A DNA stretch of 64,000 nucleotides, taken from an uncultured virus (IMG/VR IMGVR_UViG_3300038318_000272) (Duplodnaviria; Heunggongvirae; Uroviricota; Caudoviricetes). Below the pieces are notes generated by a model. It did not search any database. It had not been told where the DNA came from and saw only the letters and a list, made by a program, of their open reading frames with translations. The position numbers and the translations under genes were made by a program. The DNA is taken from IMG/VR virus record IMGVR_UViG_3300038318_000272, positions 1 to 64,000 of that record, one strand, 5' to 3'. This document shows, piece after piece, positions 9,308-26,400 of this stretch. Every line of letters starts with the position of its first letter. Positions within the stretch are counted from its first letter, which is position 1.

Positions 9308-9633
9308 ACCGACTGCCTAGTTAGTCTGAATGTGTGTACATACACGGGTCCGCTGTATCCTATTTCCTTCAGATATTTCTCCATGTCTTCAGACGAGTAG
9401 AACCCCTCTGCCTTATACATAACACAGCACATCGCACCAGAGAGATAACTGTATTCCGTAACGCCTGTTATCTCGAACTCCATCTTCACGCTCTTTTCAG
9501 GATATTCCACGAGGAACGTGTCCCCTATCGCACCCTTTACTCCTCTGCGCATGGTCTGAGTTTTCTCCCCAGACCATAGTGCTTCTAAGAACTTCTCATC
9601 AAATTTCAAATCTATTCTTGCCATGTTTCTCAC
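9304..9633 (-). CDS. ASCH-domain protein
   Basis: LKFDEKF..L.SGEKTQTMRR, AEGF, VYVHTF. Confidence 0.8.
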   Translation of the reverse strand: MRNMARIDLKFDEKFLEALWSGEKTQTMRRGVKGAIGDTFLVEYPEKSVKMEFEITGVTEYSYLSGAMCCVMYKAEGFYSSEDMEKYLKEIGYSGPVYVHTFRLTRQSV

Positions 9634-11093: not shown

Positions 11094-11220
11094 ACACTCT
11101 TATCCTTCTACACCTATATAACGTCTTCTTCCTTACAGTATCCTTTGTACTTACAAATTCCTAGTGACCTGTTCTCAAGTAGCACAGTAAAGTATATATA
11201 TGCACACAGCGAACTCATGA

Positions 11221-11354
11221 GCAGACACAACGAATACACTGCGAACATATGACGTACTGTGTATGCGTCTGAGAAAGGTCAGTTAACACAAAATCCTTTA
11301 GACGGATATTTTTTTCAAAGATTAACGGGGGAGTATATATTAATAGACTGACGG
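11221..11354. other. intergenic module copy 1 (CAGAC/GTCTG hairpin, T-run, GGGG-TATA-CTGACGG box)
   Basis: Same order of parts as copies at 15575, 18107, 19279, 20529, 21911, 22631, 23444. Confidence 0.65.
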
Positions 11355-11372
11355 CGAGAGCCCGAAGGACTC

Positions 11373-11750
11373 TCACCTCAGCTCACGGAAGGTCTCGAAG
11401 GCTGTGCTCACACGCCTCTTCTTTGACTCGACCAAGGCACCGAGAGTATCCTTCCTCTCCCCGACCCAACCCCATGCACAGTTCACGTGTATGTGATTGC
11501 CCTCCTCTCCTTTCTTCACATCTAACACATCCTCATGCACACAACCCGTAGCGTACAGGTATCTGGCAAGGATACACTCTCGTGTGTCAGGATTGCAGGG
11601 AGAAGGCCCTTTGCGGGCCTCCTGTATCCACTGCCACAACACATCCCCGTTCCACTCATACTCCAGCCCCGAAGAGATAGAACCCTCATCATGAGAGAAG
11701 GTGTTATGTCTCATGTCTCCTTCTTTGTACGTAGTCAGTTTCACTCTCAT
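11373..11750 (-). CDS. hypothetical protein
   Basis: Followed by GC hairpin 11356-11374. Confidence 0.55.
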   Translation of the reverse strand: MRVKLTTYKEGDMRHNTFSHDEGSISSGLEYEWNGDVLWQWIQEARKGPSPCNPDTRECILARYLYATGCVHEDVLDVKKGEEGNHIHVNCAWGWVGERKDTLGALVESKKRRVSTAFETFRELR

Positions 11751-11751
11751 C

Positions 11752-12165
11752 TCAGACCCTCATCGGCTTGTACGTCTTGTCACGCATCTTCTCGCATTCC
11801 TTCTTGACATATGCAATCATCTGCTGACCCGTACCGCCGTGCCAAAGAGACTTAGCAACCTTCCGAGTAAGGTCTCCGTAGACCTCATCGACATTCAAGT
11901 ACATCGGCACATCGGCAAAGGTCTCGACGAACTCACGCACATCGACCATCTCCGAGCACAGCTCTTCCTCTATGTAGTCTACGAAGCCGTCCGCCGACCC
12001 GTACTCTATGATATGCTTACCGAGAATCCTGTAAGCGATATCTGCATCGCTTCCCATCTCGCTCCACCCCATCCACCGTCCGAGTCTCTTGAACATCACA
12101 TCAGGGTTGTTGTTCCTTATCGCATTCACTGTCTCTACTGCTTTTATGAAATTCGTATCATTCAT
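11752..12165 (-). CDS. hypothetical acidic protein
   Basis: AAGGA RBS; 137 aa. Confidence 0.6.
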   Translation of the reverse strand: MNDTNFIKAVETVNAIRNNNPDVMFKRLGRWMGWSEMGSDADIAYRILGKHIIEYGSADGFVDYIEEELCSEMVDVREFVETFADVPMYLNVDEVYGDLTRKVAKSLWHGGTGQQMIAYVKKECEKMRDKTYKPMRV

Positions 12166-12522
12166 TGTTTCACGTTCCTTTTTAAATTGTTTAGATTAAG
12201 ATGTTTTTGTCGAACAGCCCGTAGGCTATCACATTCATTCTCTTGTCCGAGTGATAAGGGCAATGCTTCATCGAATGATTCTCGTTCCCGACCATCATCA
12301 AATGACAGGCATCATCGCAATCCTCGCCTTTGCACACGGTTATCTCCAATGTATCACGGCATCCTCCACCGCTGACACCTCTTATATACTCTGTCGGAGA
12401 GAACCATTTACCTTTAAGGTTCCCTTCAAAGATACCGTCCCAGTCCTCTGGGTAAGGTATCACAGCCTCTCTCAGCCCGTCCTCCTCCGCCTGCAACTCT
12501 TCTAGCGTGTATCTTCTCTCGC

Positions 12523-13182
12523 TCACTGTACCACCCCGAATATCTCCTGCTTCTCGAAGAGGTAAGGCTCTCCCTCCTGCACTACTGCACAGGCTATCGC
12601 CTTGCGTACTTTGCACGCTATCTCCTTTATCGAATAGTTGTTGGAGATGATTTCATCCTTCAGTGCGAAATTCATCAACTCTCCCTTTAAATCCTCGTAT
12701 GTGTAAAGTAGGGGGTGACTTATGCCCTCATCCACGTACAGTCTTCCGTTCTTGATTCTCCCCTCAGCCAGACGAATCAGAGTCTTCATGTCGGGGAACT
12801 CTGTGCTGACCATGACATCACGGTAGAACCTTCTCATACCCCTCACGCTCATCTCCTCTCCAGCGAATATCGGATGGATGGTTATGTTGAACCCCAGTCC
12901 CTCGGACTTTCCGTCCACGGCAAGGTCGTCCACGATGCCCGACACCGCCCCACGAACCCACATCTCGAAATGTGAATCGTAGACACCATCCTCCTTTCTG
13001 AGTTTCACGAACAACGCTGACTGAGCATCCTCGAATGCCTTGATTGTTATTGCTCTCAGAGAGTCGTTGCCGAGTATACTCTCCGTCATGTCTCTCGGAA
13101 GGGCCTTAAGGTCATTGCTCATGAGTCTCCAACTTATAGGGATGCCACAGACCTCCCTGTTGAGATACACCACGTTCGTCAT
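12523..13182 (-). CDS. hypothetical protein
   Basis: 219-aa ORF, GGAGG RBS. Confidence 0.65.
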   Translation of the reverse strand: MTNVVYLNREVCGIPISWRLMSNDLKALPRDMTESILGNDSLRAITIKAFEDAQSALFVKLRKEDGVYDSHFEMWVRGAVSGIVDDLAVDGKSEGLGFNITIHPIFAGEEMSVRGMRRFYRDVMVSTEFPDMKTLIRLAEGRIKNGRLYVDEGISHPLLYTYEDLKGELMNFALKDEIISNNYSIKEIACKVRKAIACAVVQEGEPYLFEKQEIFGVVQ

Positions 13183-13183
13183 T

Positions 13184-13522
13184 TCAGTCCTCCTTCACGA
13201 AATCGACCTCGAAGTCCCCGTCATCGAACTCGCACTCATCCACGATGTAATCATAGATGTCCTCGGCAAGGCTCTCCAGGAAGTACTCGAACTCCTCTCT
13301 GTACCTTACAGGGTCTACTGCTTCCAGCGTCTCGCTGACCTCATAGAATCCCCCGAAGACATCCACCGTCTTGCCCGTGTTCAGATAGTCATCGAACGCC
13401 TCGCACACGTCCGAAAGGAACACGCCGTTGAACAGTTCCCTTAAGTCGTTCGCATGGTTGACATCCATCACATGAGACACGTTGCCCGTGCCCCTCATCT
13501 TGCTTGTTATTCTTACTTTCAT
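13184..13522 (-). CDS. acidic paralogue family member 1
   Basis: AFDDYLN..VDVFGGFYEVSETLEAVDPVRYREEF shared with 13584, 17569, 19508, 20709. Confidence 0.75.
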   Translation of the reverse strand: MKVRITSKMRGTGNVSHVMDVNHANDLRELFNGVFLSDVCEAFDDYLNTGKTVDVFGGFYEVSETLEAVDPVRYREEFEYFLESLAEDIYDYIVDECEFDDGDFEVDFVKED

Positions 13523-13537
13523 TTTATTTTCCTCCTT

Positions 13538-13582
13538 GGGTTTTTCTCCCTATGACCATATAGGTCATAAGAATATTTAACC
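13538..13582 (-). promoter_or_regulatory. representative TATA promoter with 5'-terminal GGGAGAAAAACCC hairpin; GGAGG RBS immediately downstream
   Basis: TTAAATA about 23 nt before hairpin; same design at 14407, 15040, 15427, 16759, 17519, 17921, 19132, 19859, 20358, 21755. Confidence 0.75.
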
Positions 13583-13583
13583 T

Positions 13584-13919
13584 TTACTCATCCTCCCTCT
13601 CAAGGCGCAGTCCTGCTATCTTCTTCCAGGAATACTCCTGTAAGGAATCCCACGCCTTCTTCAGCTTCTCGTTCATGAACTCCTCGAACATCCAATCATA
13701 CCGTTCCTTATCGTACATGAACAGTACATCCGCTGAAGGATGCTCTTCATCAAGAACGACAGACCTGTACTCTTTATTGAGATGTGCGTCAAACGCATCG
13801 CCCATATCAACTGTGTAGTCATGCTTCATCAGAAACAGGAATTCATCCAGATTCTTCACTTGATAGGTCTGCTTCCCTTCATACCTCGATTCCACGCTGA
13901 ATCTTATCTTCTTTTTCAT
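13584..13919 (-). CDS. acidic paralogue family member 2
   Basis: Start MKKKIRF (ATGA overlap with upstream stop); AFDAHLN..SADVLFMYDKERYDWMF. Confidence 0.7.
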   Translation of the reverse strand: MKKKIRFSVESRYEGKQTYQVKNLDEFLFLMKHDYTVDMGDAFDAHLNKEYRSVVLDEEHPSADVLFMYDKERYDWMFEEFMNEKLKKAWDSLQEYSWKKIAGLRLEREDE

Positions 13920-14386
13920 GTCTCTTCCTCCGTCTCTTCCTCCGCCTCTCTTATGTCGAATCCGTCTATCGCATCCGACCAGCCCTTCTCTTCCAGGTCG
14001 ACCCAGATTATATCTTCGATATCCCGCCTCCAATCTTTGTAGAGTTCGTAGATGCTATCCATCATCTCTGTCATGAACACATTCCAGATATCGTCGTTGA
14101 AGTCCGAATCCTCTATAATATCCTCTACGGAGTTCAGTCCTGTTCCCAGATGGAATATCTTTTCGGTCTCGTCATTCTCGTTCGACACCTTCACGACATA
14201 GCGTGTGTCTATCACAGTGACGTCCAAGATTCTCTCAATCTCTTGAAAGAAGGATGTTCCGTTGGCACCATCATAGGCCTCAATCAGATTCCATACATCA
14301 TCCCCAGTCCTGTCCCAGATGTCGAGAGCATAGATTTCTCCCGTCTCAACCTCTTCGTATCTTATGTGTAGCAGTTGTTCTTTCAT
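13916..14386 (-). CDS. highly acidic hypothetical protein
   Basis: Very D/E-rich; own promoter and RBS. Confidence 0.7.
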   Translation of the reverse strand: MKEQLLHIRYEEVETGEIYALDIWDRTGDDVWNLIEAYDGANGTSFFQEIERILDVTVIDTRYVVKVSNENDETEKIFHLGTGLNSVEDIIEDSDFNDDIWNVFMTEMMDSIYELYKDWRRDIEDIIWVDLEEKGWSDAIDGFDIREAEEETEEET

Positions 14387-14457
14387 TTTTTATGTTCCTC
14401 CTGTTCGGGTTTTTCTCCCTATACTTACATAGGTTAGGGAGTATATATACCCTTCGT

Positions 14458-14769
14458 TCAGTCCTTCACCAGGCATATCCACAACTCTCCCATGTTGTGA
14501 AAGCCCGTCCCCTCCAGGTCATCGTAGACCTCTGTCATCTTCTTCTCCAGCCAGTTAGAGTATGCCTCTCCCGTTGTGTATTCTTCAGGGTCTTCCGTGA
14601 AATTCCCGTTGAACAAATCCTTTGCGAATTCCCAGATGAGTATCGCATCGTACTCTTTCCCCAGCCAATACCTGAACTCATCATAGTCCATTGTCAGTAT
14701 GTATGCGTGTTTGAATTCCGAGTTCATACTGACCACTATCTTCATCCTCTCCTTCTTGTTTATGTTCAT
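14458..14769 (-). CDS. acidic hypothetical protein (possible distant paralogue)
   Basis: Start MNINKK after AGGAG; C-terminus resembles the family. Confidence 0.6.
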   Translation of the reverse strand: MNINKKERMKIVVSMNSEFKHAYILTMDYDEFRYWLGKEYDAILIWEFAKDLFNGNFTEDPEEYTTGEAYSNWLEKKMTEVYDDLEGTGFHNMGELWICLVKD

Positions 14770-15023
14770 CTCCTTCCCTCCCACTGCTTCTTCCATTCCT
14801 CTCCAAAGTTCACATAGATTGCATCTCCGTACATACCCTTTGCGTCATACAGCCATGCAACCCTGTCAACATCGGGGTCATCATCGTGAACATATCCCCT
14901 ATACATCCCGTCGGCTATGACCAACGCCTCTTCCATATCATCAGCCATGATGATGTCCTTCGTTCTGTCATCATCTCCGTTCTCGACGTTGAAATCCGCC
15001 GTTATCATTACTATGTGTGCCAT
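14766..15023 (-). CDS. small acidic protein
   Basis: Own promoter, hairpin and RBS. Confidence 0.65.
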   Translation of the reverse strand: MAHIVMITADFNVENGDDDRTKDIIMADDMEEALVIADGMYRGYVHDDDPDVDRVAWLYDAKGMYGDAIYVNFGEEWKKQWEGRR

Positions 15024-15078
15024 TTTGTTTTTCCTCCTTGCGATTTTCCTCGCTACAACTACATAGACGTAGTAGTAT

Positions 15079-15414
15079 TTAACCCTTTATCTCCGAGCCT
15101 ATCACGTAGTTCAGATATCCAATGCATACTATACCGCCCAGCAATACATCTATCGGTCTGTCGTCATCGTCTATATTGAAGGTAGCTCTCAGCCCTCCAA
15201 AGTTAACAGACATGAAGAAAGCATCATCAGCCCATCCGCACATCAAAAGGAGACCCCCGTCTCCCTTCTGAATGTGCATACGCCTCTCTTCCTTCTTGTA
15301 ATCCCCGTGCAACCATGCCTCTATCTCCAGCCATTCGTCTTGAGATATGTCAGCGATGCTGTTGACATTAACAGTCATTAATCCGTTCTCTGTATTCAGT
15401 TCTATTTTTTTCAT
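15079..15414 (-). CDS. hypothetical protein
   Basis: Own promoter, hairpin and GAGGAGG RBS. Confidence 0.65.
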   Translation of the reverse strand: MKKIELNTENGLMTVNVNSIADISQDEWLEIEAWLHGDYKKEERRMHIQKGDGGLLLMCGWADDAFFMSVNFGGLRATFNIDDDDRPIDVLLGGIVCIGYLNYVIGSEIKG

Positions 15415-15478
15415 TGTGTTCCTCCTCGGCTTTTCTCGCCGAATCTACATAGGCGTAGGTCTATTTAATACCTTCGTC

Positions 15479-15565
15479 TACTCAATACCGAGTAAGTAGT
15501 CTACCGAGATAGTAGTAACAATAATAGTAGTAACTAAGAATTGAGTACCTACCTAATAGATAGTA
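15479..15565. promoter_or_regulatory. array of five WACY-N8-RGTW operator-like sites
   Basis: TACTcaataccgAGTA, TACCgagatagtAGTA, AACAataatagtAGTA (one mismatch), AACTaagaattgAGTA, TACCtaatagatAGTA. Confidence 0.7.
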
Positions 15566-15574
15566 GAGTAGGCA

Positions 15575-15701
15575 TACCAGACGAGTGATGGTTATCACTC
15601 GGCTGTTTGGGGTGTAGGGGACTGTGGGTTGGCTTGATATTCAGTTTATCACGGATTTTTTTGCTGTTCAACCAGGGGGATATATTCAGATGCTCTGACG
15701 G
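15575..15701. repeat. intergenic module copy 2 (family A)
   Basis: CCAGAC-hairpin-CTGTTTGGGGTGTAGGGGACTGTGGG (15603-15628), T-run, CTGACGG. Confidence 0.85.
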
Positions 15702-15933
15702 TGAAGGGGTTTGGGGTGGTTGGTATCATACCCACACCACCACCCTATCGAACCCTGCCTCGAAGTCGTCGTATCACTCATCGTCTTTTTCAAAACATGG
15801 ACAATATGTATCTTCGTACATATCGAAAGGCATGTTAGGGTCATCATCCTTTTGACAACAGAACATATCTCCATCGTCGTAAGCCACACTGTCCGCATAC
15901 TTGCATGTGTTGCATTGTTCTTCAGTCATTGCT

Positions 15934-16233
15934 TCACCTCTCCTCAATTATTAAATCGTCCATCATATCGTCGGTTAGCAGACGCGCGTGAAAGTCCTCA
16001 TCGTCAGTAAGGTAGGTTATGATGTAGTCGCCAACCATCCAATAGGTGCACGGCTTGTTATATTCACCATGCACACCATTATAGTATCGCCAAGCATCCT
16101 CAGCGTTAATCATTACATACCTAAGGTAGTGTTTTGATTCGTCAAGGGTGTAGTAGGGTTGTACATCCCACGCTAGGTGACCGTCCGTCGGTATACTGTC
16201 AATCACGTTGCTCATTTCCTTGAGTGTCGCCAT
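15934..16233 (-). CDS. hypothetical protein, paralogue of 27169-27465 and 26607-26918
   Basis: MATLKEM...CTYWMVGDYIITYLTDD...MMDDLIIE shared. Confidence 0.75.
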   Translation of the reverse strand: MATLKEMSNVIDSIPTDGHLAWDVQPYYTLDESKHYLRYVMINAEDAWRYYNGVHGEYNKPCTYWMVGDYIITYLTDDEDFHARLLTDDMMDDLIIEER

Positions 16234-16236
16234 TTT

Positions 16237-16482
16237 TCACTCCCCTATAAGAGATATAGACCCGACCATAACCCCGTCTCTCCTAATCTGTGCGAAACAC
16301 CCCAAAAAATCTATATCATCCGCATACATAATAAGTCTCCCTATATGAATGCTGTATTTCCAATATCTGCGGTGAACCCTGATTATGACAACGTCTCCAA
16401 TGGCTACGCTCTCTCCGTCCCCATCTATGAAGGCTTGAATCTTTTTGGTGTTGTTTGCTATTATTTCCTCGGTTGTTGCCAT
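16237..16482 (-). CDS. hypothetical protein, paralogue of 26922-27167
   Basis: MATTEEIIANN vs METTKAIIAKN; YADDI/YVDEI. Confidence 0.7.
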   Translation of the reverse strand: MATTEEIIANNTKKIQAFIDGDGESVAIGDVVIIRVHRRYWKYSIHIGRLIMYADDIDFLGCFAQIRRDGVMVGSISLIGE

Positions 16483-16511
16483 TTTCTTTATCTCCTATAT
16501 TTTTAAGATGT

Positions 16512-16742
16512 TTAGATGCGTGCAAGCCCCTCAGATGTGTATTCGAACTTGTACGTCCTTCCGCCTACAAACGCCTTCACATAAGCGTTTCTGGCGATTC
16601 CATCTGTAGCCGCAAGTCTTTCTATCTCGGATACGATGGCGTTCTTAGCGTCCTTGGTCAGCTTGCGGTCATCAGTGGTAACCCCAGACACACCCGCTAC
16701 ATCCTCTCCCCATCTTCCCCAAAACTCGATTGTTGCTATCAT
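16512..16742 (-). CDS. hypothetical protein
   Basis: Start MIATIEF after GGAGG RBS and promoter. Confidence 0.6.
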   Translation of the reverse strand: MIATIEFWGRWGEDVAGVSGVTTDDRKLTKDAKNAIVSEIERLAATDGIARNAYVKAFVGGRTYKFEYTSEGLARI

Positions 16743-16809
16743 TTTGTTTTCCTCCTTTGGGTTTTTCTCCCCTAGCACTACATAGCACTAGGGGTTTTTA
16801 ACCCTTTGC

Positions 16810-17496
16810 CTAAGCGTAGCCCAGCCTCATCCTCCAGGCCTCTGCCTCTTCTCTCTTCGGGTACGCCTTACCAATCCCAGAGTAGTCCGCACTGGCTTCA
16901 TGCCCGAAATACTCCCTTGCCAGCATCAGCCTCTGAATCTCACTGAACACGATATAGTCCAGTACGAATTCGGGTATCCCCTCATTATCCAGCACCGTGT
17001 TGATGGCTATGACCTTCATCATCATTGACATGGTGGACATATGGTTGGGCTTCTTGTCCATCCAGACCAGCTTCAGCACCGAATCCTCGTTGACCAGACC
17101 CATGCCCTTCAGCCTTTCAACCGAATCGTTCAGATTGCGAACCGTTCCTATGCCGTCCTTCGCATACGTTCTATGCCTCTTTATGAAAGAAAGCTGGTTC
17201 TCCTGTGCGAATTCGTCCGATAGGATGTATTCTTTCATTTCGTCCGAGTAGCCAGCATCCTGACCACTTATCTTCTTGAACATGGTGTGAGCCAAGTCCT
17301 CCAGTACCTGCCTCGGCGCATACTTGAGATAGTCTGACACCTGGAACTCCGCCCATGAATTAGTCCTTTGCCAGCGAACCTTGAAATCGCTGAACGCCCC
17401 AAAGCTCGCCCTGACTGTGTTGTATTCGTAATCCTCGCCTACTTTGCTGAACACATCCATAACGTATTCGTCATTGTTCTTTGCCTTTCTTGCCAT
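16810..17496 (-). CDS. YgjP/DUF45 (M48/SprT-like zincin) homologue lacking HExxH
   Basis: VSDYLKYAPRQVLEDLA and IPEFVLDYIVFSEIQR where YHELxH is expected. Confidence 0.6.
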   Translation of the reverse strand: MARKAKNNDEYVMDVFSKVGEDYEYNTVRASFGAFSDFKVRWQRTNSWAEFQVSDYLKYAPRQVLEDLAHTMFKKISGQDAGYSDEMKEYILSDEFAQENQLSFIKRHRTYAKDGIGTVRNLNDSVERLKGMGLVNEDSVLKLVWMDKKPNHMSTMSMMMKVIAINTVLDNEGIPEFVLDYIVFSEIQRLMLAREYFGHEASADYSGIGKAYPKREEAEAWRMRLGYA

Positions 17497-17568
17497 GTTC
17501 TTTTTTCCTCCTTTTTGTGGGGTTTTCTCCCTGCATCTACATAGACGAGGGAGTATATAACCCTTTGC

Positions 17569-17901
17569 TTATTCGTCCTCCTCTTCGTACACCTCTATCT
17601 TGGTGATTGTCAGATTTCCCATGTAATAAGGTTCTCCTCCTTCAAGAGTTGATTCTATGTCCTGGCTAAGACTGTCCAGATTGTCCAAGAGTCCGCATCT
17701 GAACGCTGTCGGGTCTATCTCTTCAAATGCCCTACTGGATGAATATGTGTATCCGCATATCTCCACGTCGCCATAGGCATCGTCCAGCATAGCCCGATAT
17801 TCTTCCAGGGCTTCCTCTTCAAACTCTGAATCCATAGCCTCTATCAGACCATCGAAGTCTTCAAAGAGGTAGACTTTTCCACCTGTTGTTACCATTATCA
17901 T
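17569..17901 (-). CDS. acidic paralogue family member 3
   Basis: MLDDAYGDVEICGYTYSSSRAFEEIDPTAFRCG. Confidence 0.75.
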   Translation of the reverse strand: MIMVTTGGKVYLFEDFDGLIEAMDSEFEEEALEEYRAMLDDAYGDVEICGYTYSSSRAFEEIDPTAFRCGLLDNLDSLSQDIESTLEGGEPYYMGNLTITKIEVYEEEDE

Positions 17902-18106
17902 TTTTCATATCCTCCTGTTTGCGACTTTTTCGTCGCTATACCTACATGTTCGTAGGTGTATATAATACCTTTCATCCTACGCAATACCGATATTCCTAAG
18001 AGAATACCGAGTACCTACTCTATTCCGAGTACCTATTCATTCTTAAGTCGGTATCTAAAGTATATCTACTGATTTTTGAGTAACCGAGAAACCCGTTGCA
18101 AAATTG

Positions 18107-18247
18107 GACTGCTCCGAATGTGAAACCTATTGGGTTTCACATGAGGACGACTGCGCCACTCAGGCTTTGCTGGTTGGGGGGGTAAATCAGAAACGCATAC
18201 TTTTTTTCAATGAAATCACGGGGGACTATATATGAATAGCCTGACGG
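18107..18247. repeat. intergenic module copy 3 (family B)
   Basis: GCTCCGA-hairpin then 37 bp (18152-18188) identical to 19317-19353, T-run, CTGACGG. Confidence 0.85.
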
Positions 18248-18377
18248 AAAATCTACCAGAATTTGCGTAGGTACTGGTTAAGGGGTGGATGGGGTGAGTG
18301 AGGGCGGTCAGCGCAAAAGCCCACGCCTGACCTAATCGCCCATCCATGAGAAAGGATAAGGAGTTTAGGGGCGGGTT

Positions 18378-18698
18378 TCAGACGATGCCGATAAACCTCC
18401 TGTTGCCGTCCACGCCGTCTATCTCTAAGCGGAAGTCCCGTATCCTCGCACAATAGCTGTGCTCGCCTATCTCGGACAGCATCGTGTTGATAGCGTCCCT
18501 GTCGCTCGCCGAATATGCGCCCTTGCCAATGCTGAATGTCTTAGCGTCATACTTGAAAATGTCAACGCCGTAATGACTCAATTCGAACGAGCCATCCCTG
18601 TCATCATAGAATCCTAGGTATGAGCCTTTGCGAACATACGCTCTCGGTTTCTTGATTGCTTTCTTATGCAGTTCCTTTACGATTCCTATGCTTTTCAT
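18378..18698 (-). CDS. hypothetical protein
   Basis: GGAGG RBS and TTTATAC promoter. Confidence 0.65.
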   Translation of the reverse strand: MKSIGIVKELHKKAIKKPRAYVRKGSYLGFYDDRDGSFELSHYGVDIFKYDAKTFSIGKGAYSASDRDAINTMLSEIGEHSYCARIRDFRLEIDGVDGNRRFIGIV

Positions 18699-18755
18699 TT
18701 TTGTTCCTCCATACCTACATACACCGAGGTGTATAAAGGGTTTTCGGAAAGGGGT

Positions 18756-19112
18756 TTATTCGCCCTCCATTATCGCCATGGCGTAGGTTCTCATGATGGG
18801 CCTGGCCAGCCCGTCCGATGGTCTTATCTCAGCCAGTCCAGCCAGTTTGAACAATTCCCAATAGTCATATTCGTCAAATGCTCTCTCGAATGTGTCCATG
18901 GTCGGTTTCTTTCCGAACGTGTTTAGAAAGTCCCGATAGCACCACTCAACCGCTGTTGCAATGATATCGCCCGACAGTTTCAATTTCCAGCCAGCACCAT
19001 ATTTCTCATGATACTTGACGGACAGTTCGGATATCGAAGTTTCGTTAACTCTCTCTGCTATCTTCAGTACATCCTTTTTCGTTGTCTTGAACAACGCTAT
19101 ATTTTCCGACAT
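18756..19112 (-). CDS. hypothetical protein
   Basis: GGAGGT RBS, hairpin and TATA upstream. Confidence 0.65.
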   Translation of the reverse strand: MSENIALFKTTKKDVLKIAERVNETSISELSVKYHEKYGAGWKLKLSGDIIATAVEWCYRDFLNTFGKKPTMDTFERAFDEYDYWELFKLAGLAEIRPSDGLARPIMRTYAMAIMEGE

Positions 19113-19207
19113 TTTCTTTTACCTCCTTCTTTCGGGGTTTTCCCCGACATGATTAGTTAAGGCACGATAGTATATATATCTTTGCCTAAAGTCAAACGAC
19201 AATGCCC

Positions 19208-19270
19208 GACCAATTTTCGAGTAGCATCCAACCAATTTTCGAGTAGCATCCAACCAATTTTCGAGTAGCA
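19208..19270. repeat. 22-bp tandem repeat x~2.8, each unit carrying one operator-like site
   Basis: ACCAATTTTCGAGTAGCATCCA repeated. Confidence 0.9.
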
Positions 19271-19278
19271 GAATAAGT

Positions 19279-19419
19279 GGTGCTCCGAACACAAGACACA
19301 GAATGGTCTTGTGTTGTGCGCCACTCAGGCTTTGCTGGTTGGGGGGGTAAATCCAAGACTCAAACACAGGAATATTTTTTTCCTATGTTCTCAGGCCCAT
19401 ATGTTTAATAGCCTGACGG
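19279..19419. repeat. intergenic module copy 4 (family B)
   Basis: AACACAAGAC/GTCTTGTGTT stem, shared 37-mer, T-run, CTGACGG. Confidence 0.85.
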
Positions 19420-19507
19420 AAAATTGAGCCTCACTCAGCCTTATGAACGGGCCTGAGTGAGTAAAAGGTTTGGAGGTATGTTTCTTTCATCCTAAGACTG
19501 ATTCACT

Positions 19508-19837
19508 TCAGTCGTCCACATACAGAGTCATTCCGCCTATCCTGTATTCGTTGCCCCTCTCCAGCTCAGCCCGTGCATCAGCCAGCTCTGCATCCCAGTA
19601 CTCTAAGAACGCTGTCCTGTACAAGGTTTCGTCTACTGCCTTGAGTGCTTCGCTGGTTGCATAGTGGTGTCCGAAGATTACCGCATCCTCTAAGTCGTCC
19701 AGGTACTCGTCGAATACCTCCTCCAGGACATGCTCGTAATATGCGAACAGCTCATCGTCCAAGTCAGCTATCTCTTCTATTTCGATTATTCCGTTTTTGA
19801 TGTACTTGTTGTCAAATTCAGCTCTTATGTTTATCAT
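19508..19837 (-). CDS. acidic paralogue family member 4
   Basis: VFDEYLDDLEDAVIFGHHYATSEALKAVDETLYRTAF. Confidence 0.75.
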   Translation of the reverse strand: MINIRAEFDNKYIKNGIIEIEEIADLDDELFAYYEHVLEEVFDEYLDDLEDAVIFGHHYATSEALKAVDETLYRTAFLEYWDAELADARAELERGNEYRIGGMTLYVDD

Positions 19838-19933
19838 GTTCCTTTTTCCTCCTTTTGTGGGGTTTTCTCCATGTTTCCTTAAGTCGTAATTACATATAAA
19901 GGTTTGTATAAGGGGTTTGGTTAAAGAGTTTGT

Positions 19934-20350
19934 TCAGTCCCCGTTTACCCTGGACTTTATTTCAACAGTCATGGGATTTAATTTCCCAAATTCCTTTTTC
20001 CCATACTCATTTCCATGAAGGAATTCTAGGGCCTTCTTCTTACTGTCTTCTAGCTCTTTAACTTCTTCAGACGTGGCACGGTCGTTATACTCGAGATTCT
20101 CAACAAACTTAGTAGCACCTTCTATGGTCCACATTACATTATTTAAAACTGAGATTTGAACCTGGAACGTCCCGCAAGTGATATCCGTGCACATCGGCGT
20201 TTTGTTCTGGCCCGATGACATCATTTGATTTTCCCCACATTCTGGAACGTCTTTAAGACGCTCATAGGTTTCAACGCTCTTTACTTTGTCCAGTGGTCTG
20301 GTCCCCTCGAACGTATATACGTGTCTGTATGTTTTTGTCATTTTTTTCAT
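19934..20350 (-). CDS. hypothetical protein
   Basis: Start MKKMTK after promoter and hairpin. Confidence 0.6.
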   Translation of the reverse strand: MKKMTKTYRHVYTFEGTRPLDKVKSVETYERLKDVPECGENQMMSSGQNKTPMCTDITCGTFQVQISVLNNVMWTIEGATKFVENLEYNDRATSEEVKELEDSKKKALEFLHGNEYGKKEFGKLNPMTVEIKSRVNGD

Positions 20351-20413
20351 CTCCGTATCGGGTTTCTCCCCGACAATACCCCCTACGCCGTAGTAGTATT
20401 TAATACCTTCGCC

Positions 20414-20520
20414 TACTAAAGAATCCGTAGCCAACTCAATATATGGTTACTACTCAATATATGGTTACTATAAATTTGGTATACAAACCAACCAAAAATT
20501 GAGTAACCGATTTTTAAGTA
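20414..20520. promoter_or_regulatory. array of six operator-like sites including an 18-bp tandem duplication
   Basis: e.g. TACTataaatttGGTA, AACCaaaaattgAGTA, AACCgatttttaAGTA. Confidence 0.7.
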
Positions 20521-20528
20521 GCAATGCT

Positions 20529-20663
20529 TACCAGACGATTGTGAAGTATTCGCAATCGGCTGTTTGGGGTGTAGGGGACTGTGGGAGGTTATTGTTCTCT
20601 TAAGTATTCAGCCAAAATATTTTCTCTGTTTTCCCAGGGGACTTATATTCTATGCACTGACGC
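20529..20663. repeat. intergenic module copy 5 (family A)
   Basis: 26-mer at 20560-20585. Confidence 0.85.
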
Positions 20664-20708
20664 TCGGCTACAAAAAAAGAGAAGAGGAAGGGCTTTCGCC
20701 CCTCGGTT

Positions 20709-21080
20709 TCAACCCTCTATTTCCTCCCAAAGGGTTATCGGGGTGGGCTCACCGTATTCGTTGCTCCCTATCGTGTACTCGTCCCCGTTGTTCAGATTCG
20801 ATATCAGGCACTCTATCTCCGATTTACACCACGCCTCGAACTCGGAATCGTATGCCTCTCTATCCACCATATAGAGGGCATGAGCTGGATTGTATATCTT
20901 ATGTGACCCAATCTGCCCCACTGATACGAGGTTAAACCACGCCTCGAACAAGTCGTCCAGCATTCCTTTGAATTCCTCAATCAGCTTACAGTACAGTTCG
21001 TTGTAGTATTTGACCTCAACAACCCACGTGACTGACCCCGCCTCTACATCGGGTACAAATCTTGCTCTTATTGTCTTCAT
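20709..21080 (-). CDS. acidic paralogue family member 5
   Basis: IYNPAHALYMVDREAYDSEF...GDEYTIG. Confidence 0.7.
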   Translation of the reverse strand: MKTIRARFVPDVEAGSVTWVVEVKYYNELYCKLIEEFKGMLDDLFEAWFNLVSVGQIGSHKIYNPAHALYMVDREAYDSEFEAWCKSEIECLISNLNNGDEYTIGSNEYGEPTPITLWEEIEG

Positions 21081-21095
21081 TTCAATTCCTCCTTA

Positions 21096-21124
21096 GTGGG
21101 GGGATACGGCTCCCCCCGAGCCTC
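21096..21124. repeat. 29-bp intergenic GC-rich element identical to 23044-23072
   Basis: GTGGGGGGATACGGCTCCCCCCGAGCCTC in both. Confidence 0.9.
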
Positions 21125-21128
21125 ATTC

Positions 21129-21503
21129 TTAAGCCCCCCATTCCCTCCGCCCAGGGACGGTTTGCCAGGTGTCGCTCTCATCCCTGACCGCAATCACAGT
21201 CGCCGTCATGAATTTTGTTTCCACAACGTCGCCGACATCGCACAGCCAGCCCTCGAACTCATCGGCTATCTCTTCCGCCATCGCCTCTATGTGCCTGCGC
21301 AGACCCGATACGTCATGATATCCCGTATCGCTCTCGTACGGGATACGCCCGTGCACTTCCTCGTCGTACTCTACTTCCATGAACGTGTCAATCAGACGCT
21401 CGTACCACTTGTCCAGCAGGTAAGCCTTCATCTCGTCCACATTCACGCCTCTGTCAAAGACCAGCTCTTCCGAGTAGTCCTCTGCCTCTATCTTTATTTT
21501 CAT
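21129..21503 (-). CDS. acidic hypothetical protein
   Basis: GGAGG RBS; D/E-rich. Confidence 0.65.
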   Translation of the reverse strand: MKIKIEAEDYSEELVFDRGVNVDEMKAYLLDKWYERLIDTFMEVEYDEEVHGRIPYESDTGYHDVSGLRRHIEAMAEEIADEFEGWLCDVGDVVETKFMTATVIAVRDESDTWQTVPGRREWGA

Positions 21504-21536
21504 TTCTTTTCCTCCTTGATTGGGGGGAATCCCCCC

Positions 21537-21740
21537 TTAGGGTGTGTCCTCATATATGTCCCTCTCGACATACACCTGAGTCATTAAGTCCTGATTGTCC
21601 ATCACAATGCACCTGAATCCTCCATCAGCCATGTTGCAAGCACATTCCCCAGCTTCCTCTCCAGTCTTGAACCACTGGGTGATTATGTTGTTCACGTTGC
21701 GTGGGCTTATAGCCACAACCGAATATCTCATGTTGCTCAT
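21537..21740 (-). CDS. small hypothetical protein
   Basis: GGAGGT RBS, promoter and hairpin upstream. Confidence 0.55.
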   Translation of the reverse strand: MSNMRYSVVAISPRNVNNIITQWFKTGEEAGECACNMADGGFRCIVMDNQDLMTQVYVERDIYEDTP

Positions 21741-21910
21741 ATCCAATACCTCCGTCGGGATTTACCCGATGTAACCCCATCGGCACGGTAGTATATATAT
21801 CTATGCACAAAATTGAACCTCAATTCAACCAAAGAATAAGTAGGTTTTCAGACCTACCAAAGAATAGGTAGCATAGACCTACTCATTTCTTGGTAGCACA
21901 ATCTCTCTTC

Positions 21911-22044
21911 TTACCAGACGGCTGAGATTACATCTCAGCCTTCTGTTTGGGGTGTAGGGGACTGTGGGAGGTTAGTGGTTCATTACATCTGACGAAAATA
22001 TTTTTCATGTTCTTGCGGGGGATATATGTTCTATATGCTGACGG
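21911..22044. repeat. intergenic module copy 6 (family A)
   Basis: 26-mer at 21943-21968; three operator-like sites at 21827-21895. Confidence 0.85.
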
Positions 22045-22121
22045 TCGGCCTAAGCCGACCATCTTGGCCTTTGACCCGACTAGTGGGGTGAGGGGGTATA
22101 GCCCCCCTCTTGCTCTCACTC

Positions 22122-22469
22122 CTAGGCCTTGTATGGGATTCTCAGAGACCCAATCTCCACACGGTCATCAATCCTGATGCTGTCTGCCTTGCCATGGACG
22201 GCTATCCCTCCCATTTCGAAGGTCAACAGGCAGTACCTGAACCTACCGCCCCCCTCTGTTCTTAAGGACAGGGGGTAGCCGTGGATGTGGACATCCCCCG
22301 TCTTGACCAGTTCGCTGATTGTGAGCCAGTCGTTGCGAGACAGGTTAGAGATGTCATAGTCCACAGGGGTTATCACGGTCTCGAACATGGGTGTGTGGTC
22401 GCTTAGAACATTGAGATTCAGAGCGACACGCTGTACGCCTTCCGACATATTGTGTGTGTTCATTTTCAC
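22122..22469 (-). CDS. hypothetical protein
   Basis: Own promoter; loosely similar to 15079-15414 and 23648-24016 (IS..xWL.I.E pattern). Confidence 0.55.
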   Translation of the reverse strand: MKMNTHNMSEGVQRVALNLNVLSDHTPMFETVITPVDYDISNLSRNDWLTISELVKTGDVHIHGYPLSLRTEGGGRFRYCLLTFEMGGIAVHGKADSIRIDDRVEIGSLRIPYKA

Positions 22470-22630
22470 AACTCCTGCCGATTTGGTTGGTTTGATTCCC
22501 TTCCGATTCGGCTAAGACCCCCTACGAGGTGGTAGTATATATATCTACGCTCAAAATCGACACACAATCTAACCAGAATTTAAGTAGGTAAACAGACCTA
22601 CCAGAATTTGAGTAGGTGAATTCCTACGTC

Positions 22631-22767
22631 TTACCAGACGGTTAGGGATTATCCTCAACCGTCTGTTTGGGGTGTAGGGGACTGTGGGAGGTTATTGTTC
22701 CTGGATTAGACTCCGCCAAAATGTTTTTTCTGCTTTGACACGGGACTATATTCTGATGTGCGGACGG
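22631..22767. repeat. intergenic module copy 7 (family A)
   Basis: 26-mer at 22663-22688; operator-like sites at 22571-22614. Confidence 0.85.
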
Positions 22768-22792
22768 TCGAGGGGCCGAAGCCCCTCTGAGT

Positions 22793-23026
22793 TTAGTCTA
22801 TGCGCCTCCATCCACTGGGGCACTCGCCCGCACTGTGTCCGCAACACGGGTAATCCTCACACCCGCTTGACCAGACATATCCGTCCGTGCTCTCGAACTT
22901 ATCACAGACTCTGCGCCCCTGAATGACCTCATCCATGAACCCGCTGTTCTTCCTCTTCAGGCATCCGAGTGACCTCGGCCTCTCCTCTGCGTGGATGCAT
23001 CCCAGGCAGTTGTTCCATTTTCCCAT
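22793..23026 (-). CDS. small Cys-rich protein
   Basis: CLGCIH..C..C..GCEDYPCCGH; GGAGGT RBS. Confidence 0.6.
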   Translation of the reverse strand: MGKWNNCLGCIHAEERPRSLGCLKRKNSGFMDEVIQGRRVCDKFESTDGYVWSSGCEDYPCCGHSAGECPSGWRRID

Positions 23027-23074
23027 ATCTTACACCTCCGTGTGTGGGGGGATACGGCTCCCCCCGAGCCTCGT

Positions 23075-23311
23075 TCACAGCACCATCTGACAGAACGCTC
23101 CATGGTTACCCTTAGAGCCCATGTCTGTCTTTGCCCACATCTCTTCGGTGTATGCTATACAGAAACGACCGAACCCGTCCCTTGCCAGCCCGAATATGCG
23201 AGCGTGGACATCGCAAGCGTCTTCATAGGAATCAGCACTTATCTGAGTCCACCCTCCGCTGAAGGGGTGGCTCTTGCTGGTTCCGTATGTAAAGAAGAAC
23301 ACCTGTTTCAT
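23075..23311 (-). CDS. small hypothetical protein
   Basis: FFFTYG..HPF.GGW pattern; GGAGGTGA RBS. Confidence 0.6.
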   Translation of the reverse strand: MKQVFFFTYGTSKSHPFSGGWTQISADSYEDACDVHARIFGLARDGFGRFCIAYTEEMWAKTDMGSKGNHGAFCQMVL

Positions 23312-23443
23312 TTTTCATTTCACCTCCTGCCTCATGGCAATACCCAAGAAATCGTGTGAGTATATATATCTGTCGTCAAAATCGACACCAATCGCTACCA
23401 CATTCATGGTAGGACACGACTGCTACCAACAAACAGGTAGGTT

Positions 23444-23600
23444 GGACTGCTCCACGAAAGAACTCAACACATCGTGTTGGGTTCCAGTTGGAGCTACCTG
23501 CGACGCTATGGCATTGATGGCTGAGCGGGCTTTACAGAACTCAAACCGCACTGTTTTTTTTCCTAATTCCTTACGGGGTTGTATATCTATATGCTGACGG
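23444..23600. other. intergenic module copy 8 (family B-like)
   Basis: GCTCCA/TGGAGC and GAACTCAACAC/GTGTTGGGTTC stems, T-run, CTGACGG; operator-like sites at 23396-23439. Confidence 0.7.
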
Positions 23601-23647
23601 TCGGCTTTCGCCGACCTGGGTTTAAGGGGGGCTTTCGCCCCTCTCGT

Positions 23648-24016
23648 TTAGGCCCCCCCGATATCCAGTTGGCCGATAAAGTGCCTTCCGATACCAACCA
23701 GCACGATTCTGTCATTGTGAATGCCCAGCGGAGAACCCTTGTCAGCATCCCAGACAGACGAGTTGTAAACGCCCCCCCTCTGACTGAATGATGCAACGAG
23801 GTATCTCTTCCCGTACTTATCACGGTTCACGCTGAAACTCACGGTTGATGCGTCCCCCGCCTTTATGGTTGCGTTTGTTCTGTTCCAACCGCTGGCATCT
23901 GAAAGGCGTTTTTCTAAATCTTTCCACTGGGAAAGCGTTACGTCCTCGAATCTCTCGCACTGGATAAACAGCCAGCATCCTGCTTCGGATATCTCTATCC
24001 CGTTTTGTATTTCCAT
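23648..24016 (-). CDS. hypothetical protein
   Basis: GGAGG RBS. Confidence 0.6.
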   Translation of the reverse strand: MEIQNGIEISEAGCWLFIQCERFEDVTLSQWKDLEKRLSDASGWNRTNATIKAGDASTVSFSVNRDKYGKRYLVASFSQRGGVYNSSVWDADKGSPLGIHNDRIVLVGIGRHFIGQLDIGGA

Positions 24017-24064
24017 GTCTTTTTCCTCCTTTGCGTGTAAGAAGAAGGGCCGAAGCCCTTCGGT

Positions 24065-24424
24065 TTAGGCGTGCCCCCCCAGCACGTAAATCGTTGCAAT
24101 GCCCTTAAGGCACGGCAGGCGACATTCGTCAAAGTAACTGTCGCCTATCTCCAGAGGGTTAGTTGACCACTGGTCGGTGTAGCGGTCGATGGCCTTAGCC
24201 ATCCATATGTCCAAGGGCTCACGTGCCTGGGCCTTCTTCGTCGTGTGTGTGGCCAGGTACTCAGCGGTCATGGGCCTCCAAAGCTCACGAGAGGCGAGGA
24301 TGCCCTTCAGGAGCATGTCCTCATCCTCAAAGTATAGTGCCTTATATCCGAGGCATTCGTTCATGGGCTGGCTGGTAAACCCGTATCGGGTGTACTTTTG
24401 CATATTCTGCATTGCTGTGTTCAT
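24065..24424 (-). CDS. hypothetical protein
   Basis: TTATATAC promoter, hairpin, GGAG RBS. Confidence 0.6.
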   Translation of the reverse strand: MNTAMQNMQKYTRYGFTSQPMNECLGYKALYFEDEDMLLKGILASRELWRPMTAEYLATHTTKKAQAREPLDIWMAKAIDRYTDQWSTNPLEIGDSYFDECRLPCLKGIATIYVLGGHA

Positions 24425-25098
24425 TTTCTTTCTCTCCTACCAGTCCCTTTCGACTGGGATGAATATGAGATTCGTTGGGGAGTATATAACGCTTTGCCGA
24501 AAATCGAGGCTGTTATCTACTAATTATTGGGTTGGATGAATGAAAAACCAAGAAACTGTTAGGTATAGGGTTGAGTTTGGGGCCCCCCTCATCGCACACA
24601 TTTTTTTCAACAAACAAAGGGGACTATATAGCGTTATTATCTCAGTTGATGAATTGACATAGTACAACGTACTACACCCTCCCTTAGAAGGAAACAGATA
24701 TACTATACAAGGTCAAATAGAAGGTCAATAAGAAGACGATAAAGGCAATAAGGAAAGTAGTAACTAAATGTGTATAATAGTAGCAACTAATCACTAGATT
24801 TCTACACGAACCCCCCGACATAGAGAGCAATCACGAGAATGACATTATTCGAAGTATGATTTGACACGGAAATGACGGTAGTAGAGGTGAAAGAGTGAGA
24901 GAAGGATGCGGATGCCGTGGCGCACACCTTTCTCACCCTTTGAGGGGGAGTGCATAGCGTCACGGGAGAGGCACAGTCCTACTCCTCTCAATTACCTATA
25001 GGCTTTGAGAGTATATATGCCTATCGAACTTACTCTAGATGTAGTAGATACTTATTGTATAGTAGATGTATTTGATTGTAAGATGAGGTGGGGGTTGT

Positions 25099-25813
25099 TT
25101 ACTCCCGCTCTATCCTTCTCTGTGCTAGGTTGTAGTAGTTCTCATCTAACTCTATACCTATGAAGTTCCTGTTCTCTCTCTTGCATACTACGCCTGTTGA
25201 CTCCGAGCCCATGAACGGGTCTAATACAGTATCTCCTTCATTAGATAAGAGAGTTATGAGTTGAGTGAGAAGATTCTCAGGTTTCTGTGTCGGGTGTGTT
25301 CCTTGTGCTCTTTCTCTCTTAGAAGCTACGGCGCAGTCTATATGGTCATGAATCGCCTTTCCGTTGTTGTTGAACGTTCCTGTTCTTTTGTCGTTCACAA
25401 AGTAAAGCCAAGGCTCTATAGATGATACGAAATGATATTTCATATTCCTCGGCATAGGATTCGTCTTATGCCAAATACCTGTCGTTTTGTAATAGAGAGA
25501 AGTGTTCTTAGCTAACGTTATGAGGTCGTTGATTCTAAATACGGATGTGAATACTATCGCCCCCCCCCCCTCTGCGCAGAACCCTCTGAGCCTGAGAGAG
25601 GAAGTCCGACATCAACACATCGAAGCTTTTGTTGTCGAACTCGTCCCATGAAGACTGAGCGAAGTGATTCGGACGCATTGTGTGAATGTTTGATTGTCTG
25701 TCTTTGCAGAAGTTCGCAATGTTGTAAGGAGGGTCTGTAAGGATTAAGTCTATCGAGTTGTCGGGGATTTGCATTAGAGCTTCTATACAATCTGCATTGA
25801 TTAAGTTAATCAT
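25099..25813 (-). pseudogene. beta-class N4-C/N6-A DNA methyltransferase frameshifted in a G11 tract (possibly phase-variable)
   Basis: DPPY in 5' half; HPTQKP and DPFMGSEST in 3' half; halves join in frame if the G run (C 25560-25570) is G10. Confidence 0.85.
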
Positions 25814-25904
25814 ACGAGAGAGATAGAATGAAAGTATATATGTGTATCTAAGATACTAAGGAAGGAATATCTGCCTAAGAGAGAGTATCTTGTATAGTAG
25901 ATTG

Positions 25905-26400
25905 TTTTGTTGAGGAGGGGGGGGTTGTTGTGTGTTGTTGAGGAGGAGAGATGAGAAGGTGAGAGGGAGATGAGAAGGTGAGAGGAAGGTCTAGCTCAAT
26001 CCTCTCAGTTACCTATAGGCTTTGAGAGTATATATATCTTACTATATCGCCAGAGAACAAGTAACTACTGATTGTGTAGTAGATATTATTTTGTAAGGAA
26101 GGGTATGGGGGACTGTTGTGTTGTGTGAGTTGAAGGAGATTTGTTGTGTGAGTTGAAGGTGTGTGAGGGAGTATGTTGGTTGAGAGAGAATAAGGTTGTG
26201 TAGGTGATGTAGAAAGGAACCTACTAAGGAACGAGTATCTATTTAAGAAGATTATTCATGAAGATAGAGGGGAGTTGTTGAAGGGGGAGAAGGGAAGGGG
26301 TTGTATTGGGGTTATGGTGTGTTGTGTGTGAGGGTGAGAGAGAGAGAGAGAGAGAGAGAAGAGAGAAGGTGAGAGAGTAATGACTTTCAGCCGTGCAAAC
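25905..26400. repeat. low-complexity G/A- and G/T-rich tract with (GA)12 microsatellite
   Basis: (GA)n 26336-26359; tandem GAGATGAGAAGGTGAGAGG; almost no C on plus strand. Confidence 0.85.

Follow-up and report, generated by a model that had tools for sequence, protein, structure and literature searches.

A repeated composite module with a rigid 46-bp box between the small genes of an uncultured, probably methanogen-infecting tailed virus

The uncultured virus IMGVR_UViG_3300038318_000272 (Caudoviricetes) is represented by a record of 68,842 bases that is rated complete, of which we analysed the first 64 kb, hereafter the window. Between positions 11373 and 24424 the minus strand carries an array of small genes. 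Of its proteins, 27-30 were scanned; no family could be assigned with confidence from Pfam, NCBIfam or PADLOC, and all PHROGs matches were to families of unknown function. Eight copies and a decayed ninth copy of a composite module are confined to this array, between genes, and all nine lie where a sequence-only reading had placed them. Each module combines operator-like palindromes with a hairpin whose sequence is free, a G-rich tract followed by a variable stretch, and a rigid 46-bp box, and the whole arrangement spans 250-300 bp. The modules flank blocks of one to nine genes, not every gene. A profile of 21 module segments had no match outside the modules in the 68,842-base genome. Furthermore, across fetched loci totalling 2.0 Mb, a joint box matrix from two viruses exceeded a score of 15 nowhere but at modules and at stand-alone boxes of the same kind.

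The boxes are located on the minus strand, which is the gene strand, and the other module parts are given without strand. Copy 1 has a single operator-like palindrome (11166-11181, a relaxed match) and a TATA box with a purine-rich flank on its left (11193-11200), then a weak hairpin, a tract lacking a G-run and a variable stretch (11221-11308), and finally the box (11309-11354; on the gene strand a motif, 16 nt, a C-run and an A-run). Copy 2 has four palindromes (15479-15565), a segment of hairpin, tract (15604-15628) and variable stretch (15575-15655), and its box at 15656-15701. The same succession is found in copy 3 (palindromes 18016-18082, with an extra one right of the box at 18254-18269; segment 18107-18200 with tract 18154-18182; box 18201-18247) and in copy 4 (three palindromes with a 22-bp period, 19208-19267; segment 19275-19374 with tract 19319-19347; box 19375-19419). 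Copy 5 carries up to six palindromes (20414-20520), a segment at 20529-20617 (tract 20561-20585) and a box at 20618-20663. Three palindromes (21827-21895) precede the segment (21912-21998, tract 21944-21968) and box (21999-22044) of copy 6, and two each those of copy 7 (palindromes 22571-22614; segment 22632-22721, tract 22664-22688; box 22722-22767) and copy 8 (palindromes 23396-23439; segment 23445-23553; box 23554-23600). The decayed copy 9 (24518-24645, profile match with E 8.6e-5) retains a T-run and a G-run, and lacks the hairpin and the CTGACG sequence.

Contrary to the order of parts described by the sequence-only reading, the single palindrome of copy 1 is left of the TATA box. The one conserved G-rich tract of that reading turned out to be four sequence classes. 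An identical 25-mer is present in copies 2, 5, 6 and 7 (class A), a common 29-mer in copies 3 and 4 (class B), and copies 1 and 8 have singleton tracts. The T-run, which had been listed apart from the box, forms one rigid unit with the G-run and CTGACG. The T-run is found in nine of nine window copies, and its distance from the G-tract varies. Copies 1, 4 and 9 are partly decayed; the copy 4 box lacks the G-run (C-run on the gene strand), and the box of copy 7 reads CGGACG.

Read on the gene strand, the box consists of the motif SYGWCAS, 15-17 nt, a C-run, and an A-run that starts 31-35 nt after the motif. Both distances, the longer one measured to the first AA, are kept in 17 of 17 copies from two viruses, and such fixed distances over 46 bp suggest that proteins contact the DNA here. 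The overall length equals that of an archaeal core promoter, and in copies 1, 3 and 9 the core ends in TATA followed by the C-run, as in the gene promoters. The boxes directly follow terminator-like hairpins of the gene strand, for example the GC hairpins closing a gene block at 22044-22112 (minus strand); 200-300 bp beyond the box, the next block has its canonical TATA promoter. A reading of the motif as a C/D box was discarded, as CUGA is not conserved across the boxes of the second virus.

The hairpins combine divergent sequence with conserved pairing. Seven of the eight module hairpins fold better than shuffles (z -3.1 to -5.0, for segments picked by eye), copy 1 reaches a z of -1.5, and copy 9 has none. 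Between copies the arms are 49-61% identical with complementarity kept, which indicates that the hairpin forms in a single strand. In the class A copies, arms and variable parts are 45-61% identical, and the 25-mer tract is identical.

The 16-bp operator-like palindromes are concentrated in the array, with 19 of 32 genome-wide matches within 15400-24700 versus a shuffled mean of 0.76. A simpler second repeat, made of a B-recognition element (BRE), TATA, 5' hairpin and ribosome site, precedes many array genes with or without a module (for example 14384-14456, minus strand), and constitutes the second class of swap breakpoint discussed below.

A second virus carries the same element. An exact 20-mer scan of metagenomes from the Joint Genome Institute (JGI) yielded 12 loci. 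Six belong to close relatives and three, the contigs L033, L036 and L039, to a distant virus group; the remaining three (L034, L037, L041) contain the 20-mer without the layout and were dropped. In L037 (6952-6971) and L041 (789-808) the exact 20-mer tract sits in a GC-rich element with no other layout part, which we treated as chance. The 13.3-kb contig L036 is a small-gene array, and two of its proteins, 31% and 45% identical, are common with the window. Its seven modules keep the layout, the order and the orientation to genes, which bears out the earlier proposal of a dedicated system. A matrix from the seven L036 boxes places seven of the eight window boxes among its top 10 genome matches; the window matrix, in turn, has six of the seven L036 boxes in its top seven. 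The palindromes differ in L036, with another inverted repeat at three modules and one window-type site near 12310, and the tract has diverged in its second module. Part of the exact agreement of the tract between both viruses reflects ascertainment, as that 20-mer was the query that led to the distant contigs.

Two boxes in L036, at 12201 and 12534, stand alone without hairpin or tract, which suggests that the box is a unit of its own. Around them (12201-12620), a canonical TATA on the opposite strand is directed into the first lone box, and the gene-strand tract after the second one is the reverse of the module tract in L036 copy c, so that the RNA of the second lone box and that of copy c could pair. 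Elsewhere in L036 (3545-3624), three tandem leftward-type TATA promoters precede one gene, one of them with the upstream motif of the box.

The repeats also mark places of gene exchange. The six close-relative contigs show four gene replacements and a single deletion. What is replaced extends from the start codon to beyond the gene, including the terminator hairpins; homology breaks off with the final base of CTGACG at one end and at a ribosome site or promoter at the other. Breakpoints at the CTGACG end fall at 15700 in the box of copy 2 (contigs L030 and L031, runs X2 and X7), 22043 in copy 6 (contig L035, runs X2 and X7), 22765 in copy 7 (a joint in run X2) and 23599 in copy 8 (a loose end in run X15). 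For a pooled count we used 9 ends from BLAST, 27 from joints and 13 loose ones within the array. The listed joints numbered 15 out of 40 and the listed loose ends 23 out of 114; 11 of the 15 listed joints were kept, together with three from a second table, after one divergence of equal length and three joints with one side shorter than 30 had been dropped. Among the 39 merged breakpoints of those listed, boxes, which make up 3% of the array, account for 6 (nominal p 0.001), promoter cassettes, with 11.6% of the array, for 10 (p 0.012), and other starts for 2; the p-values are indicative because the classes were set post hoc and repeats can mislead mapping. Cassette swaps at the modules, as envisaged earlier, therefore have breakpoints at box edges in relatives to support them, but breaks occur also at the plain promoter/ribosome-site repeats.

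The host of this virus is probably a member of the Methanomassiliicoccales, because a capsid relative (43%) was found in a Methanomethylophilaceae genome bin and array DNA was matched in 29 of 261 genomes of the order, mostly via one host-like gene near 17270-17450. This 228-aa gene (16810-17496) has DNA matches across many Methanomassiliicoccales genomes; its product is presumably metallopeptidase-like, judged from a motif seen by eye, with the HEXXH histidines absent. Digester, landfill and wastewater runs contain near-identical virus DNA, and four of these runs were aligned with the virus; those such as X2 and X7 indicate that it is common. The promoters of the viral genes are of the archaeal type and match those of the host signal recognition particle (SRP) RNA and RNase P genes (30 loci each), whose RNA begins some 22-26 nt after the end of a canonical TATA (about 22 nt for SRP RNA). 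These host genes share no consensus of the GTCAG or C-run kind. A pattern resembling the motif, 15 nt and a C-run is present in one of the four host 16S promoters inspected.

Taken together, we consider it slightly less than an even chance that the module is a composite terminator-promoter-operator cassette with a structured, transcribed segment of about 100 nt, whose repeats double as points of homologous recombination. Such a cassette would serve early genes and would be read on the minus strand. The upstream gene block would terminate in the GC hairpins, often with a U-run. The 46-bp box, next in line, may act as a second, non-canonical promoter, with the motif in the BRE position, an AT-rich core, a C-run and a start in the A-run. 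For copies 1 to 8 the predicted starts lie at about 11312, 15659, 18204, 19378, 20620, 22003, 22726 and 23557. As the core is TATA-like in some copies only, this promoter role would require a special factor, probably a virus-specific one. The product would be an RNA of about 100 nt with a variable 5' part, unpaired C-rich tracts and a 3' hairpin, existing on its own or forming a long leader. The palindrome cluster would then bind a dimeric viral regulator, ahead of the canonical TATA promoter of the next block. Since the repeats flank genes, homologous or microhomology recombination (RadA, RusA, nuclease) would exchange cassettes from start codon to terminator, between a fixed promoter/ribosome site and a fixed box, as in the repeats of T4-type phages.

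Several observations weigh against this explanation. Most boxes lack a host-type TATA, and among 121 genomes of the host order just 3 contain the box pattern. No regulator and no viral TFB or TBP was identified in the protein-family scans and in the examination of the two genes shared with L036. We found no consistent gene-strand U-run after the module hairpin. Three-base loops, which are odd for RNA, occur in 13 of 21 module hairpins versus 3 of 33 control hairpins. Non-Watson-Crick stem positions, traced blind to strand, number 14 G-T versus 3 A-C in the 21 module hairpins, which favours the plus strand, and the closing helix of class A requires a plus-strand G-U. Regarding the gene swaps, 21 of the 39 merged breakpoints among those listed lie elsewhere, the breakpoint classes were drawn after the data had been viewed, and the events are not independent.

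The two genes shared with L036 were searched for an operator-binding protein, and neither resembles a known regulator. One product (18378-18698) resembles Kyano_Gp96 (Atlas lead, feature score 0.89, TM 0.74-0.79); the protein is common to L036 and to gene clusters of two host-order genomes, where the proteins carry long basic tails. The other has 10 unnamed relatives. Among further viral proteins, a winged helix-turn-helix (wHTH) protein (34143-34844) is a candidate for acting on the cassette.

A bolder version of the cassette explanation is possible, though rather doubtful. The modules would encode a new viral family of structured RNAs of about 100 nt, with at least four classes and seven to eight members per genome, one class being exact between distant methanogen viruses. 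These RNAs would have their own non-canonical promoter class, be co-regulated with early anti-host genes, and be reshuffled with protein genes. Their Shine-Dalgarno (SD)-like or anti-SD-like tracts would act on host translation or titrate a host RNA-binding factor. The RNA-library contigs of X15 and X20 cover 19 and 8 of 30 bins; as they carry no strand and include promoter DNA, they are uninformative on transcription.

The rival that survives best, which we regard as unlikely but worth weighing, turns the RNA around: antisense small RNAs on the plus strand, with a 5' hairpin, a G-rich SD-like tract, a variable part and an end in the T-run, and with the box as a protein-bound roadblock or insulator. 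Such RNAs could serve as decoys for ribosomes or for an RNA-binding protein. The G-T bias of 14:3 and the plus-strand G-U of the closing helix fit this direction, but the control hairpins of gene-strand RNA (n=33, 8 of them with UUCG, GAAA or UUAG loops on the gene strand) lean the same way, with 8 G-T versus 5 A-C; since they do, the plus-strand lean is weak and the test poorly calibrated. The T-run is in place in every window copy, and the rigidity of the box would suit a roadblock terminator behind a U-tract, analogous to the terminators of Reb1 and TTF-I. In copy 1 a TATA box with the correct flank lies 22-24 nt before the hairpin, and by analogy with host promoter geometry, rightward transcription from about 11223 could start there; copies 2-8, however, have no plus-strand TATA before the hairpin. 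GGAGG or GGAGGA ends are present in seven of seven L036 modules and three of eight window modules. Yet pairing with the 16S tail is no better than in shuffles at p<0.05 in 14 of 15 segments, and for the class A tract it reaches at most the level of an ordinary ribosome site. A mini-ORF (open reading frame) after GGAGG was rejected, with start codons 1-3 nt downstream versus 4-11 nt in viral genes.

Quite improbable, in our view, is a signal at the DNA level, namely R-loop or priming sites for multiple origins and recombination-dependent replication, or a site for a DNA-binding machine at genome entry. The R-loop or priming sites would be formed by single-strand hairpins with purine-rich triloops, together with a G-rich strand and the AT-rich box. 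Analogous priming sites are T4 origins, ColE1 RNA II and the mitochondrial conserved sequence block II (CSB II). Triloops, as seen in the module hairpins, are more typical of DNA hairpins, and the virus encodes RadA, RusA and a VapE-like helicase. G4Hunter scores of at least 1.4 are reached in six of eight window and seven of seven L036 modules, but 53 plus-strand genome windows pass the same threshold, and a specific G-quadruplex was rejected on this count. Furthermore, the modules occur only between array genes and always in the terminator-promoter interval. They are absent from five records related by the major capsid protein (MCP), three of them fragments, and from one contig of a metagenome-assembled genome (MAG). 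No origin recognition box matching the host consensus was seen by eye (PMC4153887).

We also give little credence to a largely neutral repeat family, spread by duplication or gene conversion, in which only the operators and TATA boxes would be functional. The partial decay of copies 1, 4 and 9 and the module of one relative, which looks chimeric with the front of copy 5 and a copy 7-like box, would be expected from such a history, and the covariation among three orthologues is not significant (2 double-sided changes, reached in 54 of 500 shuffles). Against neutrality, the hairpin arms have diverged and are still complementary, the 25-mer is identical in four paralogues despite the divergence of its flanks, and the spacing of the box is rigid in two distant viruses.

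Integron-like shuffling, the other suggestion of the sequence-only reading, with box or hairpin as a site-specific recombination site, is very improbable: breakpoints do fall on the last CTGACG base in several independent records, but scans of 69 proteins with Pfam and 60 with PHROG (sets that overlap and do not cover all ORFs) revealed no integrase, the two cassette ends differ (box versus start codon/ribosome site), the modules flank blocks of one to nine genes, the hairpins lie away from the breakpoints, and homology merely stops at the conserved end of the box. Homologous recombination of the kind known from promoter early stem-loop (PeSL) elements fits better, because breaks occur also at plain repeats, the proteins scanned include no integrase, and the virus encodes RadA, RusA and a PD-(D/E)XK nuclease.

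The variable stretch does not look like a guide, because it is nearly unchanged in some relatives (changed in others), and itself a hairpin in the three distant contigs L033, L036 and L039. None of the eight window stretches has a match above shuffles in the viral genome. Spacer-like matches sought by BLAST in the 261 host-order genomes, a set outside which the exact host may lie, were not found, and three short matches were coding. The class A tract occurs in 0 of the 261 genomes within 3 mismatches. No RNA-guided effector family was detected in the Pfam, NCBIfam, PHROG and PADLOC scans of the proteins. Integron attC cassettes, viral mini-CRISPR arrays and the guide RNAs of TnpB/Cas12f are likewise repeated non-coding units with constant and variable parts. 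The modules differ from all of these, as neither an integrase nor a repeat-spacer periodicity was found, nor an effector nuclease within the array or a target of the variable part.

The claim that no described element has this layout stands for the full arrangement in the literature searched, but composite repeats in regions of orphan genes are known. Closest to the module come the PeSL elements, the class I repeats of halovirus HF2, a motif of HGTV-1 and the early-promoter motifs shared by archaeal anti-defence genes. It parallels these in placement and shuffling, and is not a member by sequence. PeSLs of T4-type phages are described as composite terminator-promoter-ribosome-site repeats between orphan genes in a hyperplastic region (PMC2839356, PMC4122927). 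As in the accessible parts of these reports, our repeats lie between orphan genes, swaps in close relatives break at them, and recombination genes are present. A stem-loop precedes the box, whose promoter role is putative; in PeSLs the terminator lies directly upstream of the promoter. The PeSLs described there have bacterial sigma-70 or Mot promoters and one stem-loop, whereas this archaeal virus adds clusters of operators and a second, rigid box, together with a hairpin of free sequence and a G/C tract. Sigma-70 promoters were also sought here and rejected, with 18 sigma-70-like sites versus 20.1 in shuffles; the promoters are archaeal, not of the sigma-70 or Mot type.

The class I intergenic repeats of HF2 are 56-58 bp single promoters with proven activity (PMC8707807). 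According to the text available, they too belong to an archaeal tailed virus, lie among unknown early and middle genes, have conserved blocks around an AT core and are kept in relatives; that text describes no operator cluster, hairpin-tract segment or tandem second promoter. Compared with the BRE/TATA/initiator arrangement, the box has a fitting geometry and a mostly non-canonical core sequence. In HGTV-1, a motif of TATA and inverted repeat before orphan genes has been likened to PeSLs (PMC3950731); as far as the accessible description goes, it corresponds to our simpler repeat, not to the full module. Finally, anti-defence genes of archaeal viruses are reported as small single genes with a strong shared promoter and inverted repeats as likely repressor sites (PMC11065993). 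By likeness to the accessible part of that report, which describes no structured non-coding segment or second box in the early regulatory sequences, we predict that the array holds anti-defence genes. No homologue of a known Acr or Aca was found, and no search aimed at one was made.

The combination of operator cluster, hairpin-tract segment and second rigid box was thus not described in the literature searched, with supplements and most subscription papers outside its scope and methanogen-virus supplements as a place that could bear on it. The cassette is larger and more structured than the PeSL and HF2 intergenic repeats, and possibly contains a new viral RNA family. Gene control in methanogen viruses is almost undescribed, and the cassette supplies testable coordinates for a candidate second promoter class, for operator sites and for a possible viral small-RNA family. 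Moreover, it points to an array of genes that are likely early and anti-defence in function, and carries gene shuffling of the PeSL type over to an archaeal virus, with breakpoints placed to the base. Should the RNAs exist, they would form a multi-copy viral non-coding RNA system with no counterpart in the literature searched.

The five capsid-related virus records, whose capsid identities are 43-51% and of which two are rated complete, have neither array nor module, which indicates that the element is not universal in the wider group, and no module was found in 46 loci from a search with an L036 AAA protein and from MCP relatives. In IMG/VR, which may not include the records nearest this virus, a class A 23-mer had 0 matches; gapped patterns gave 31 and 5 matches, all chance or coding on inspection, and two array-protein alignments led to no locus. 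A module model matched 0 of 151 host-order genomes, and an array-gene homologue is present in 2 of 261, without modules. Rfam returned 8 matches at E up to 5, all under the gathering score. A query of 1,021 bases that includes copies 6 and 7 matched none of 50,697 GenBank phage records at E 0.01, and thus showed no homology with the HF2 repeats, and GenBank plasmids gave no match.

The virus genome encodes a terminase with intein, portal and tail proteins, RadA, NrdD, a VapE-like helicase, a PD-(D/E)XK nuclease, RusA and three tRNAs. Directly left of the array (8966-9633) lie Tad2-like (Thoeris anti-defence) and ASCH-domain genes. The region 2900-6629 holds NrdD and, upstream, a separate ORF (5772-6629) with helix-turn-helix (HTH) and HNH domains and intein-like ends, which possibly makes it a split or intein-interrupted ribonucleotide reductase region. 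To the right of the array, an N6/N4 DNA methylase is split over two ORFs (25099-25813) with an apparent frameshift at a long C-run near 25560, and an 85-bp TATA cassette with operator-like palindromes is duplicated (24983-25067 and 26000-26084). A GA-rich low-complexity tract spans 25900-26400; similar GA/CT tracts form the end of this record and of the related records G004 and G005, and are also found at the end of the L036 array. The large terminase (28998-31040) has a Hint-domain insertion near its N-terminus that is absent from the aligned part of the capsid-related viruses. Near the end of the genome, a 2,198-aa ORF (62169-68765, extending beyond the window) probably encodes a tail fibre or adhesin.

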